Below the pieces are notes generated by a model. It did not search any database. It saw nothing but the letters and a program-made list of their open reading frames with translations, and had not been told where the DNA came from. DNA of 24,000 nt, taken from positions 26,751 to 50,750 of the forward strand of contig JBMFWY010000001.1 in the NCBI GenBank assembly GCA_049964795.1, written 5' to 3'. Positions 2,177 through 14,520 of this stretch are shown one piece after another. The stretch is from Candidatus Micrarchaeia archaeon (lineage in GTDB: Archaea > Micrarchaeota > Micrarchaeia > Micrarchaeales > Micrarchaeaceae). The stretch's first letter is position 1; each line of letters opens with the position of its first letter. The position numbers were made by a program, and so were the translations under genes.

Positions 2177-2809
2177 ATGGAAAAAGAGATGTTTGACAAG
2201 CTTGAAAAGCTTTTGCAAGAAGGCAAAGGAAAGCGCAAGTTCGTACAGAGCGTGGAGCTTGCGATAAATTTCAAAGGAGTAGATTTTTCAAAGCAGGAAA
2301 ACAGGCTTAATACCGAAGTAATACTTCCAAACGGCAAAGGCAGTGAAAGCAAAGTAATAGTATTTGCGGACGACCAAAATCTGATAGGCACGGTAGGCAG
2401 ATTGGGAGGCAAGGTAATAAGGGAAGCAGAGATCCCCAAAGTTTCAAACGACAAGGCAGCGCTGCGAGAGATGCTTGAAAGCGAGCTACTTGCCCAGCCT
2501 AGCCTTATGCCAATCATAGCAAAGAATTTAGGTCAGTTCCTTGGACCGAGAAATAAGATGCCTAAGCCCATAATAGGAGGGGACGTCGAGAGAATTATTA
2601 AAAATGCGATAGGCTCGATATATTTGAGAAGCAAGGGAAAGTACCTTCCGACTGTGCACTGCATAGTAGGCAAGGAAACCATGGAGCTGCAGAAGCTTGC
2701 GGAAAACATTGATGCTGTATTAAACGCGCTGGCAAAAAAGCCGGGCAAACAATATGTAAAGTCGATATATGCAAAGCTTACCATGAGCGAGCCAGTAAGG
2801 CTAGCCTGA
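2177..2809 (+). CDS. rpl1: 50S ribosomal protein L1 (uL1)
   Basis: Typical uL1 sequence (KRKFVQSVELAINFKGVDFSKQENRLNTEVILPNGKG...). The ORF track starts at 2159, but the ATG at 2177 is preceded by GGAGGG (2164-2169) at 7-nt spacing. Gene order L1-P0-P1 is the conserved archaeal stalk operon. Confidence 0.9.
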   Translation: MEKEMFDKLEKLLQEGKGKRKFVQSVELAINFKGVDFSKQENRLNTEVILPNGKGSESKVIVFADDQNLIGTVGRLGGKVIREAEIPKVSNDKAALREMLESELLAQPSLMPIIAKNLGQFLGPRNKMPKPIIGGDVERIIKNAIGSIYLRSKGKYLPTVHCIVGKETMELQKLAENIDAVLNALAKKPGKQYVKSIYAKLTMSEPVRLA

Positions 2810-2821
2810 AGGTGAAATGCA

Positions 2822-3655
2822 ATGCTTACAAGGCAACAGAAAATAGAGTTTGTAAACAAGGCTTCCGAAGAGCTTAAGAATTATAAGACCGTTGGAGTAG
2901 TTTCGCTCAACGCAGTTCCAGACAGGCTGCTCCAGAGAGTAAGAAATACGCTGAAAGGGGAAGGCAGGTTTATACTTGGAAGGAAAACTGCGCTTCAAAG
3001 AATTCTTGAAAGCAATGAGCATACGAAAAGGCTTGCAAAAGAGCTCACAGGAACAAGCGCGATAGTGCTCACGAATAAAGATCCTTTTGAACTTTATGAA
3101 ATGTTCAAAAGCAATGCCATAAAGCTTGCGGCAAAGCCGAAGCAGGTGGCAAATGAAGACATAAAAATAAATGAAGGAGAAACGTCGCTGCAGCCAGGTC
3201 AGGCAGTGACAGAGCTTAAGAAAGCAGGCATAGACGTGCAGATGCAAAAGGGCAAGGTAGTAATAGCAAAAAGCAAGGTGCTGGTAAGCAAGGGAAGCGC
3301 AATAAGCACCGCAGTGGCCAATGCATTGCATATTCTTGGCATAACCCCTTTCACTGCCATGCTTGAGCCCAGGGTTATAGAAAGCCAGGGGGTAATATAC
3401 ACTAATGAAGTTTTCAAGATAACAAGAGAGGGCGTGCTTTCGGATATAATAGCAACATTTTCAAAGGCGAGGGCGGTTGCGCTGCAGCTTAACATAGCTA
3501 CGCCGTATACAATAGCCGAGATGATAGCAAAAGCTTACAGAAATGCGGTTGCGCTTGGATTGGAAGCGAAGGCTTATGATACAGGCATAGTGGAAAAGTT
3601 GATATCAAAAGCAGTTGGAGAAGCTGCATCTCTTGGCGCTTCACAAGCGCAGTAG
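2822..3655 (+). CDS. rplP0: 50S ribosomal stalk protein uL10 / P0 (short form, no acidic C-terminal tail)
   Basis: N-terminal QKIEFVNKASEELKNYKTVGVVSLNAVPDRLLQRVRNTL and the archaeal domain-II insert (GETSLQPGQAVTELKKAGIDVQMQKGKVVI) are P0-like. SD AAGGTGA lies 6 nt upstream. The position between L1 and P1 agrees. Confidence 0.85.
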   Translation: MLTRQQKIEFVNKASEELKNYKTVGVVSLNAVPDRLLQRVRNTLKGEGRFILGRKTALQRILESNEHTKRLAKELTGTSAIVLTNKDPFELYEMFKSNAIKLAAKPKQVANEDIKINEGETSLQPGQAVTELKKAGIDVQMQKGKVVIAKSKVLVSKGSAISTAVANALHILGITPFTAMLEPRVIESQGVIYTNEVFKITREGVLSDIIATFSKARAVALQLNIATPYTIAEMIAKAYRNAVALGLEAKAYDTGIVEKLISKAVGEAASLGASQAQ

Positions 3656-12410: not shown

Positions 12411-12441
12411 GCAGTCCCGAGTTGTGCAAAAGAGAGATAGC
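12411..12441 (+). other. 5' strand of the pre-16S processing stem (BHB motif)
   Basis: GCAGTCCCGAG (12411-12421) is perfectly complementary to CTCGGGACTGC (14510-14520). GTGC (12424-12427) pairs with GCAT (14501-14504). AGAGAGATAGC (12431-12441) pairs with GCTATTCTCT (14491-14500) with one bulged G. AAA (12428-12430) is left as a 3-nt bulge. Confidence 0.65.
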
Positions 12442-13515
12442 TGATTGCTTTTAACTTGAAGCCGATTCCAGTCGATGCTGCTGGAGGGTACTGCTATCAG
12501 GTTCCGACAGCCATGCAAGTTTGCTCTACGGCTTCGTAGGGCGGCGTACGGCTCAGTAACACGTGGCTAATCTACCGTAAAGAGAGGGATACCCTTGGGA
12601 AACTGAGGTTAATACCTCATATGCTAGAGCATCTGGAAGGAGCTCTAACAAAAAAGGTTGCAAATTGCAGCATTACCGCTTTACGATGAGGCCGCGGCGG
12701 ATCAGGCAGATGGCGGGGTAACGGCCCACCATACCAATAACCCGTAGGGGATGTGAGAGCATGAGCCCCGAGAAGGGCACTGAGACAAGGGCCCTAGCGC
12801 TACGGCGTGCAGCAGGCGCGCAAACTCCACAATGCGCGTAAGCGTGATGGGGGGAACCTGAGTGGCTGACTAACGTCAGCCTTTTGCCAAGTATAGCAAG
12901 CTTGGAGAATAAGTGCTGGGCAAGACCGGTGGCAGCCGCCACGGTAATACCGGCAGCACAAGTGGTATCCACGATTATTGGGCTTAAAGCGCCCGTAGCT
13001 GGCTGATGCCGTCTCATGTGAAATATTGGCGTTCAACGTCAATGCGAGCACGAGATACCCATCGGCTAGGGAGTGGGTTGGGTCAGGAGTACTTATGGGG
13101 GAGGGGCTAAATCCTATAATCCTATAAGGACTAACGGTGGCGAAGGCGCCTGACCAGAACACATCCGACAGTGAGGGACGAAGGCTAGGAGAACGAATCG
13201 GATCAGATACCCGAGTAGCCCTAGCAGTAAATCATGCAGACTCTGGTGTTGCATGCATCTCGAATGCATGCAGTACCGTAGCGTAAGCGTTAAGTCTGCC
13301 GCCTGGGGAGTACGGCCGCAAGGTTGAAACTTAAAACAATTGGCGGGGGAGCACACAAGGGGTGGATGCTGCGGTTTAATTGAACCCAACGTCGGAAATA
13401 TTACCAGAAGCGACGGCAGTGTGAAGGTCAGACTAAAGATCTTACCTGACAAGCCGAGAGGTAGTGCATGGCGATCGTCAGCTCGTGGTGTGAACTGTTC
13501 GGTTAAGTCCGGTAA

Positions 13516-14038
13516 GCTGTTGAGTGAGGCTATGACTAGAAAGCTAAAACTGGATCCAGATACCTGCTACATGCTTGGCATGTACAGCTGTAGCATGCGC
13601 TCTCCGATTTCCATAAGCACAGCCAAGAGGGAGCTGGTTGAAAAGTTTACCAAGATAGCGCTTGAATTAGGCGTAGAGCCTGAAAAGGTGCGCATCGAAA
13701 GCATGCAAAATGGCATGCAAAAGGTATTTTTTTACCACTCCAAGCTCGAAAAGCTGTTCAAGAATGCGCTCGAGCGCAGAAGCGTTATATTCTCGCGCAA
13801 GAATGCATGCGCGCTAAGCTATGTAGCTGGCGTATTTGACAGCAACGGCGGAAAAGACCGCTTTGGGCTCTTCATAAAAAAGCTTGATCCTGCAAACGCG
13901 GTGATCATGGAGAACCTTGGCTTGCATGTGTGGGAATCAGGAGGCAGGCATTACATATTGAATGCAAAAGTTTTCGTTACGCTTATTGCTGGATACAGCG
14001 TAATGCTTTCGTACGAGCAACATTCTTCAGCCCGGTAA
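13516..14038 (+). mobile_element. Archaeal bulge-helix-bulge type intron within 16S rRNA (E. coli ~1100 region), carrying a LAGLIDADG-type ORF
   Basis: Conserved 16S sequence breaks after GTTAAGTCCGGTAA and resumes at CGAGCGAGACC. The BHB fold is CCGG 13509-13512 : CCGG 14032-14035, bulges TAA 13513-13515 and TAA 14036-14038, and inner helix GCTG 13516-13519 : CAGC 14028-14031. The exact junction is ambiguous within the repeated CCGGTAA. Confidence 0.8.
13532..14038 (+). CDS. Intron-encoded LAGLIDADG-family homing endonuclease-like protein (168 aa, possibly degenerate)
   Basis: The first ATG inside the intron is at 13532. There are two LAGLIDADG-like helices about 95 aa apart: CYMLGMYSCS and LSYVAGVFDSNGG. 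The TAA stop is the 3' bulge of the BHB. The portion of the track ORF upstream of 13532 is rRNA exon. Confidence 0.65.
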   Translation: MTRKLKLDPDTCYMLGMYSCSMRSPISISTAKRELVEKFTKIALELGVEPEKVRIESMQNGMQKVFFYHSKLEKLFKNALERRSVIFSRKNACALSYVAGVFDSNGGKDRFGLFIKKLDPANAVIMENLGLHVWESGGRHYILNAKVFVTLIAGYSVMLSYEQHSSAR

Positions 14039-14490
14039 CGAGCGAGACCTTCGCTAACAGTTGCCACCAGCTTAGAGATAAGTTGAGCACTCTGTTAGGA
14101 CCGCCTCCGTTTAAGGAGGAGGAAGGAGAGGGCTACGATTCGTCAGTATGCTCTGAATCTTCTGGGCTACACGCGGCATACATAGGTTGGTACAATTGGA
14201 TGCAATGCCGAGAGGCAAAGCCAATCCCCTAAAACCAACCGAGGTTCGGATTGAGGGCTGAAACTCGCCCTCATGAAGCTGGAATCCCTAGTAATCGCTT
14301 GTCACTATCGAGCGGTGAATATGTCCCCGCTCCTTGCACACACCGCCTGCCAGATCACCCAAATGAGGCTCTAACGAGGCAATAGCTTTGCTGTTTTCGA
14401 GTTAGAGTTTCGTAAGGAGGGTCAAGGCATAACAAGGCATCCGTAGGGGAACCTGCGGATAGATCACCTTTACAAAAAAATGTGTGCGTG

Positions 14491-14520
14491 GCTATTCTCT
14501 GCATTAATTCTCGGGACTGC
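14491..14520 (+). other. 3' strand of the pre-16S processing stem (BHB motif)
   Basis: Complement of 12411-12441 (see the 5' strand feature). TAA 14505-14507 forms the second 3-nt bulge, followed by a UU/UU mismatch. Confidence 0.65.

Follow-up and report, generated by a model that had tools for sequence, protein, structure and literature searches.

Does the 523-nucleotide (nt) segment that interrupts the 16S ribosomal RNA (rRNA) gene of a Candidatus Micrarchaeota (DPANN) archaeon leave the transcript as an intron, and if so, by which route? The question arises from a 24-kb window of that organism's genome (the window being the whole stretch of DNA that was analysed, to which all position numbers below refer), in which the 16S gene occupies positions 12465 to 14472 of the forward strand, the strand of all features described below unless otherwise indicated, and spans 2008 nt with the insert and 1485 nt as exons. 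The evidence assembled here allows the insert to be regarded with considerable confidence as an archaeal intron with a relaxed (HBh') bulge-helix-bulge (BHB) motif, spliced by the tRNA-splicing endonuclease EndA. A first-pass annotation of the same DNA had described a gene of about 2007 nt, or about 1484 nt without its insert, and both lengths are reproduced here to within a single nucleotide. The insertion lengthens 16S to 2 kb in this lineage, and distorts amplicon sizes and automated 16S calling for the Micrarchaeota.

Insertion site and junction motif

The exons score as a full, intact 16S gene against the Rfam covariance model of the archaeal small subunit rRNA (RF01959 SSU_rRNA_archaea; 1313 bits, model positions 1-1478), and a sub-scan of positions 13380-14180 with the same type of model returns a single insertion of approximately 524 nt, located in the loop and 3' strand of helix 37, the hairpin that reads cCuG-UUAAGU-CaGg in the model. 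In the model, GUUAAG up to 13507 precedes the insert and CCGGUAACGAGCG from 14032 onward follows it; as (T/C)CCGGTAA is found at both ends (13508-13515 and 14031-14038), the placement may shift over 8 nt. The E. coli numbering was anchored on CAACGAGCG, which we take to be positions 1100-1108 (the 1100 primer site); by that anchor U13513, A13514 and C14039 correspond to positions 1100, 1101 and 1103. The split by a 523-nt insert near E. coli position 1100, as previously annotated, thus resolves to approximately 1101/1102, as one helix 37 insertion with the proposed pairings still spanning its junctions. The GC content is 53% in the exons, 46.8% in the insert and 44.6% in the window as a whole.

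The pairings in question involve a central helix, two bulges and an intron-side helix. The central helix is formed by CCGG at the end of exon 1 (H, 13509-13512) and CCGG at the end of the intron (H', 14032-14035); it is followed on the 5' strand by a first bulge, B1 (UAA, 13513-13515), which is unpaired in the folds, and then by the intron-side helix h', whose strands are GCUGUUGAG (13516-13524) and UUCUUCAGC (14023-14031); a second bulge, B2 (UAA, 14036-14038), follows H' and has no exon-side closing helix. The order is therefore H (CCGG), B1 (UAA) and h' (GCUG...) on one strand and h' (...CAGC), H' (CCGG) and B2 (UAA) on the other, with a bulge 3' of the central helix on each strand. In tRNA BHB motifs, positions 32-35 form H, and positions 36 and 37 together with the first intron nucleotide form the bulge; the handedness of the present bulges matches such motifs, as well as the full hBHBh' motif of a second 16S intron in relatives that is described below. 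The minimum-free-energy fold of positions 13480-14070 holds H, the B1 bulge and h', and when the insert was shuffled 200,000 times a 4-base-pair (bp) central helix with an intron-side helix of at least 4 bp in this exact register appeared at a frequency of 2.7e-4. The first-pass annotation had named CCGG at 13509-13512, TAA at 13513-13515, GCTG at 13516-13519, CAGC at 14028-14031, CCGG at 14032-14035 and TAA at 14036-14038, and each of these strings is read at its position.

In the mature 16S rRNA, the same exon CCGG (13509-13512) belongs to helix 37 as its 3' strand, paired with UCGG at 13499-13502 according to the covariance model. As that CCGG is used both in H of the splicing motif and in mature helix 37, splicing implies a switch of pairing partner, and the structural switch that had been proposed from the sequence is supported by the model.

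The same insertion, found by means of the open reading frame (ORF) within the insert, is present in nine further distinct 16S genes (L001-L004, L006, L013, L014, L026 and L034), which derive, by their record titles, from metagenome-assembled genomes of Candidatus Micrarchaeota or Micrarchaeaceae, L034 being strain ARM-1, which is in culture. When the junctions of all ten introns were aligned in register and scored against the proposed structure, h' proved to be 91% paired across them, and seven of its nine pairs display compensatory changes on both sides (U-A, C-G, G-C and U-G all occur at the third pair, for instance). These values were matched by none of 500 shuffles, and pairing falls to 24-53% when the partner strand is slid by one to three columns. 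The h' of ARM-1, AUCAGUGAG/CUCACUGAU, shares no sequence with that of the window. The intronic CCGG of H' is kept in ten of ten introns, including that of ARM-1, although the rest of the intron diverges freely, to the point that, in ARM-1, no other part of it is related in sequence. More than ten independent assemblies share the structure, as does the cultured strain; the intron is present in every sampled 16S gene that is at least 95% identical to that of the window, and the exons of the window are approximately 80% identical to those of ARM-1. Two further loci, L015 (JAMCYW010000003.1) and L025 (DATJLP010000011.1), carry a Micrarchaeota-type 16S gene and the ORF family while being filed under Candidatus Marsarchaeota and the bacterium Candidatus Acidoferrum, respectively, and both are probably mis-binned; L015 equals L014 in 16S coordinates, covariance-model score and ORF match.

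The exact positions of the splice sites follow from natural variants of the bulges. EndA cuts between bulge nucleotides 2 and 3. B1 is UAU in ARM-1, and B2 is AAA in L014 and AUA in L026; the mature sequence GG(U/G)AACGAGCG is read in 13 intron-less relatives and in L040, the conserved junction sequence in those 13 relatives being GGUAACGAGCG and the intron-less rDNA at the insertion site being GGTTAAGTCCGGTAACGAGCGAGACC. At most two bulge nucleotides can remain in exon 1 in ARM-1, two or three in L026, and one to three in L014, and because each of these variants must yield the conserved mature sequence, only cleavage between the second and third bulge nucleotides fits all of them; from the B2 variants of L014 and L026 it follows that the first two B2 nucleotides are intronic. 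Cleavage between nucleotides 2 and 3 on both strands gives, by comparison, the conserved mature sequence. The comparison thus fixes the predicted cuts after A13514 and A14037, within B1 and B2 respectively, so that exon 1 (12465-13514) would end in ...GUUAAGUCCGGUA at A1101, exon 2 (14038-14472) would begin with ACGAGCGAGACC at A1102, and the intron would occupy positions 13515-14037. The limits of 13516-14038 given by the first-pass annotation have the same length and the same product in the window, and are displaced by one base relative to those dictated by ARM-1, L014 and L026. The same bulge 2/3 rule reproduces the junctions of the independent, canonical intron at site 908 in relatives.

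For ARM-1, the position given in print (E. coli 1093) disagrees with the junction sequence: splicing of L034 at 2480-3010 would fall at A1101/A1102, the same bond as in the window, and '1093' seems to be misplaced by some 8 nt. When metagenomes were scanned for the joined exons of the window's clade, only an intron-less relative, 91% identical to the window, was retrieved, which was rejected as evidence for splicing on that account; the scan found no optional (intron-less) allele within the window's own clade.

A LAGLIDADG fold without catalytic acids

Nearly the whole of the insert is filled by a conserved ORF of 168 amino acids (13532-14038), which the first-pass annotation had overlooked. 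A Shine-Dalgarno-like sequence, GAGUGAGG (13522-13529), lies 3-10 nt upstream of its ATG; (G/A)AGUGA is conserved upstream of the ORF in the other nine introns (CAGUGA in ARM-1), and the site may be complementary to the 3' end of 16S rRNA, GAUCACCU. The stop codon of the ORF, UAA at 14036-14038, spans the 3' splice site, with UA on the intron side and A on the exon side. A linear excised intron would consequently be without an ORF stop codon, and a circular one would rebuild UAA from ...CCGGUA and A13515; in L003 and L004 the frame runs into exon 2 of the genomic sequence, and would, if the intron were circularised, stop at the UGA of GAGUGA.

The ORF matches the Pfam family LAGLIDADG_3 with 17.1 bits (E 0.0065), below the cut-off of 22.5; only five of 59 family members match that family at E<=0.01, and sequence searches of NCBIfam and PDB with the ORF returned nothing meaningful, so that no curated family is matched above threshold. 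A profile search recovered a family of approximately 120 clusters (at 50% identity), all of them, in this analysis, from Micrarchaeota. The assignment to the LAGLIDADG fold derives solely from a 59-sequence alignment and the resulting AlphaFold2 model (predicted local distance difference test [pLDDT] 94.5, predicted template-modelling score [pTM] 0.89), in which two alpha-beta-beta-alpha-beta-beta-alpha halves are packed against one another via two LAGLIDADG helices. The best Foldseek matches of the model are I-DmoI (E 8e-6, TM 0.62), I-Tsp061I and PI-PfuI, followed by the bI3 maturase (2ab5, E 9.6e-4) and WhiA (3hyi, E 3.5e-3), and the protein can accordingly be described as an I-DmoI-like, two-domain LAGLIDADG fold.

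The residues that would be required for catalysis by such a fold are absent. In the second motif, the catalytic acid (E in PI-PfuI, D in I-CreI, E in the endonuclease encoded in L007) is matched by N105; in the first, S19-C20-S21 at the end of helix 1 aligns with the catalytic D, the position itself corresponding to C20 or S21. Neither LAGLIDADG helix carries an acidic residue at its C-terminal end, and the two catalytic columns are non-acidic over all 59 family members (N/S/R/C/V/K and S/K/R/A/C). The ORF is nevertheless under purifying selection, with a ratio of nonsynonymous to synonymous substitution (dN/dS) of 0.11-0.27 and synonymous sites near saturation. The protein would accordingly be functional, though, to judge by its residues and the model, probably not a nuclease, and it may be kept by selection for a nucleic-acid-binding role other than cleavage.

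Members of the family are found at three kinds of location: as cargo of the intron at 1101; as free-standing genes, mostly downstream of intron-less 16S genes; and in an unrelated operon. Free-standing copies are present in 13 other Micrarchaeota loci (L016, L018-L022, L024, L025, L027-L029, L031 and L032; ORF at approximately 3001 in most), where they lie 116-1875 nt downstream of an intron-less 16S gene and on the same strand. They possess TATA-like or Shine-Dalgarno-like upstream sequences of their own, other genes sometimes intervene between them and the 16S gene, and no BHB remnants were found around them; the notion that they lie within the 16S processing stem, as part of the excised pre-16S, was rejected, as the stem closes before the copies. 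One homologue (L017) is convergent with the 16S gene, and one family member (L010/L011) has no 16S gene nearby; distant members in L035 and L038 overlap the upstream gene in an operon adjoining aIF5B. A rough neighbour-joining tree groups the intronic copies of the window's group as one clade among the downstream copies, and sets the intronic copy of ARM-1 as the most distant, a topology compatible with either an intronic or a free-standing origin.

One tentative, and so far doubtful, interpretation of this distribution is that the family represents a domesticated homing endonuclease, which has lost its catalytic acids and acquired a host function tied to rRNA or rDNA, so that the intron would survive as the carrier of a needed cargo and not by mobility. 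On such a domestication, the protein could possibly assist EndA by keeping the incomplete BHB open, or could be a ribosome-biogenesis factor. To our knowledge, BHB introns do not need maturases.

The proposed splicing and its alternatives

The splicing pathway that these observations suggest would proceed as follows: (i) in the pre-rRNA, the CCGG of exon 1 (13509-13512) would pair with the intronic CCGG (14032-14035) in place of its mature partner, UCGG 13499-13502; (ii) the covarying intron helix (13516-13524/14023-14031) would close the first 3-nt bulge; (iii) EndA would cut after A13514 and A14037, that is, between nucleotides 2 and 3 of each UAA; (iv) the RNA ligase RtcB would join ...GUUAAGUCCGGUA to ACGAGCG..., giving GGUUAAGUCCGGUA followed by ACGAGCG, with the intron probably circularised; and (v) helix 37 would form once the exons were joined. 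An enzyme suited to such a substrate is known from the same phylum: the epsilon2-type EndA, which was discovered in the Micrarchaeota ARMAN-1 and ARMAN-2, cuts both strict and relaxed BHB motifs in vitro (PMC3239211). The 24-kb window contains no EndA gene.

Several observations weigh against this reading. The outer, exon-exon helix h, which would close the 3' bulge in a strict hBHBh' motif, is absent, with U13508/C14039 and G13507/G14040 unpairable and the 3' splice site outside any closed bulge; a search in several registers found at best 2 bp with a 2-nt bulge, and a displaced GUUCG/CGAGC helix in the window was rejected as an outer helix as it is not conserved, relatives reading GUCCG. Minimum-free-energy structures, moreover, pair the 3' UAA with UUA 13503-13505, which would hide the 3' splice site; in those folds GUUA (13502-13505) pairs with UAAC (14036-14039), and both 3-nt bulges (AGU and UAA) lie on the 5' strand, so that the BHB conformer has two competitors, this fold and mature helix 37. 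Covariation is uninformative about H and the exon flanks, which are invariant. The in vitro substrate of the epsilon2 endonuclease was of the hBH type, not HBh' (PMC3239211), and Sakai et al. (2022) were uncertain as to the removal of the ARM-1 insertion by splicing (PMC8784108). The motif fits only the relaxed HBh' class (a class described in PMC3239211) and not strict hBHBh'. The first-pass annotation had likewise found the outer helix missing and called the BHB relaxed, a judgement that the unpairable flanks and the folds bear out; the ends of the insert do form the H-B-h' part of a BHB motif, but its further description as 'textbook' goes too far, since a single bulge has a closing helix on either side and the minimum-free-energy fold pairs the 3' UAA with GUUA 13502-13505.

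Those shortfalls lend some weight to the possibility that the 523 nt stay in the mature 16S rRNA as a gene-carrying expansion segment: the motif has no closed bulge in its 3' half, and the only paper on this insertion leaves the question of its splicing open (PMC8784108). Such retention is nonetheless improbable. The insert interrupts the 3' strand of the universally conserved helix 37, and relatives manage without it; the features that are conserved correspond to the needs of a splicing substrate (the invariant intronic CCGG, the covarying h', and bulge variants that need the 2/3 cut); and the interior, whose synonymous sites are saturated, shows the evolution of a protein-coding gene and not that of a structural rRNA. 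A distinct possibility, which we consider more improbable again, is that EndA excises the insert and that the exons are not religated, leaving a 16S rRNA in two pieces of approximately 1050 and 435 nt. The evidence addresses recognition and cleavage rather than ligation, and fragmented rRNAs exist in other lineages, as is generally known; every studied archaeal rRNA intron, however, has its exons ligated via the tRNA pathway (general knowledge, with background in PMC4496867), and a precisely conserved, ligation-competent junction is what ligation predicts. Both retention and a split 16S fit the logic of the conserved junction poorly.

Mobile elements account for even less of what is seen. The 7-nt direct repeat CCGGTAA that flanks the insert is what a transposable or insertion element would leave upon duplicating its target and inactivating this 16S copy, but the repeat is imperfect in relatives (UAU/UAA, UAA/AAA and UAA/AUA) and is explained by the palindromic H and the bulges; neither a transposase nor terminal inverted repeats are present, and the only ORF has a LAGLIDADG fold. 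The intact 16S exons, together with the recurrence of the structure across independent assemblies and a cultured strain, argue equally against an assembly artefact, and either of these explanations is very improbable. The least credible of all is self-splicing, with a LAGLIDADG gene carried by a group I or group II intron of the sort known from rRNA genes of candidate phyla radiation (CPR) bacteria and some DPANN archaea. LAGLIDADG ORFs are indeed found in group I introns of Micrarchaeota rRNA genes (PMC6125680), but the present site is absent from the group I sites listed in that study; no Rfam family, group I and group II included, matches positions 13500-14050 at E<=10, so that no ribozyme core is recognized there; and with 17 nt before the ORF, none after it, and 507 of the 523 nt occupied by it, there is no room for such a core.

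A second 16S intron is present in some relatives. That intron lies exactly at E. coli position 908, and is approximately 700 nt long in L007 (at about 2040-2740), L025, L028 and L029, and reduced to a 32-nt mini-intron in L014 (within 2755-2830); the 16S gene of the window is without it. Its motif is a complete hBHBh', with H formed by GUUG/CAAC, B1 reading AAU (AAA in one relative), B2 reading AGA, AUA or AAA, and an outer helix h that consists of G902-C910 and two A-U pairs; cutting at bulge position 2/3 gives exactly the intron-less GGUUGAA joined to ACUUAAAG. The ORF of this intron in L007 retains both catalytic residues (the D of ...RDG... and the E of ...AEG...) and matches Pfam LAGLIDADG_3 at 6e-13. 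A comparison of L007 (1198-3901) with L004 (1894-3901) reveals 80 differing 16S positions, 79 of which are 5' of the site-908 intron, the two being otherwise identical from site 908 onward, the 1101 intron included, while their upstream gene neighbourhoods differ. This pattern points either to recombination breaking at the intron, as in co-conversion by homing, or to a chimeric metagenome assembly. L007 was rejected as a near-identical, 908-intron-bearing relative of L004, as the difference amounts to 4%, almost all of it 5' of the intron.

A further BHB-like structure, the pre-16S processing stem, flanks the 16S gene. Its 5' strand (12411-12441) comprises h GCAGUCCCGAG, H GUGC, a bulge AAA and h', and its 3' strand (14491-14520) comprises h', H' GCAU, a bulge UAA, which is the same as that of the intron, and h CUCGGGACUGC; it is recognized by folding (z = -6.8) and is conserved in relatives. 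In the window the motif contains two U-U mismatches beside H, and it is a clean hBHBh' in L016, L020 and L027. Duplex folding of the long 16S flanks gave meaningless global duplexes, and only the conserved processing-stem motif was used. The 16S gene stands alone between an ORF of 572 amino acids, which has no Pfam match, and a GluRS/GlnRS gene on the opposite strand; there are no 23S rRNA, 5S rRNA or tRNA genes anywhere in the 24-kb window, and the rRNA genes appear to be unlinked because the 16S gene has no 23S or 5S gene around it there.

Comparison with known systems

The occurrence of such an intron in a DPANN archaeon is not new, and the novelty that the first-pass annotation had claimed for it has to be withdrawn in view of published cases. 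Sakai et al. (2022) described for the 16S gene of ARM-1 a 522-bp insertion, placed 'at E. coli position 1093', the hypothetical protein of which is 25% similar to a protein inside the 16S gene of ARMAN-2, with no other homology and an uncertain function (PMC8784108), and Golyshina et al. (2017) reported introns in the 16S genes of Mia14 and ARMAN-2 (PMC5498576). The ARM-1/ARMAN-2 insertion and that of the window have in common their phylum, helix, size (522 versus 523 nt) and a homologous ORF (the ARM-1 protein, ARM1_0169, is P0116 in the family profile found here), and the ARM-1 junctions share the same architecture of CCGG, 3-nt bulge and helix. The present account differs from the published one in that the site is placed at 1101/1102, the motif is backed by covariation and the protein fold is assigned, and the window belongs to a different lineage. 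As far as the searched literature shows, the covariation-backed BHB assignment, the 1101/1102 site, the protein fold with the loss of its active site, and the alternation of intronic and free-standing copies appear to be new. The comparative evidence answers, on paper, the question posed in the study of ARM-1 as to whether the insertion is a spliceable intron, and the answer is directly checkable in existing co-cultures; if correct, it would also supply the epsilon2 endonuclease with a relaxed, HBh'-type substrate from a natural rRNA.

Among other archaea, the closest parallels are the 16S BHB introns of the Thermoproteales and Desulfurococcales and of the Aigarchaeota, for which 13 crenarchaeal and aigarchaeal loci, including 908 and 1093, were catalogued by Jay and Inskeep (2015; PMC4496867). 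Like the intron of the window, they interrupt a highly conserved region of 16S, possess BHB junctions, are filled by an ORF with a LAGLIDADG fold, and presumably depend upon EndA and RtcB; locus 908 is occupied exactly in the window's relatives as well, and the crenarchaeal '1093' was compared by its locus label. Unlike them, the present intron resides in a mesophilic, low-GC DPANN host, has no outer helix, encodes an ORF without catalytic acids, and looks fixed rather than mobile. Group I introns are known from the rRNA genes of Micrarchaeota and other DPANN archaea, and group I and BHB introns co-occur in one archaeal rRNA host gene (Nawrocki et al., 2018; PMC6125680).

The cargo protein represents a clear case of a homing-endonuclease fold retained without its active site, and its intronic and free-standing copies, mostly near 16S, offer a tractable example of how endonucleases are domesticated in archaea. 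Its nearest structural counterparts, I-DmoI (from the 23S intron of Desulfurococcus mobilis) and I-Tsp061I (from a 16S intron of Thermoproteus), are likewise monomeric, two-domain LAGLIDADG proteins of similar size encoded in archaeal rRNA BHB introns; sequence identity to them is 12-19%, and the catalytic D21 and E117 of I-DmoI are replaced in the ORF family by Cys/Ser and Asn. In the bI3 maturase and WhiA, the LAGLIDADG fold lacks a working active site and serves to bind nucleic acid. Both are structural matches to the ORF protein with no sequence relationship to it.

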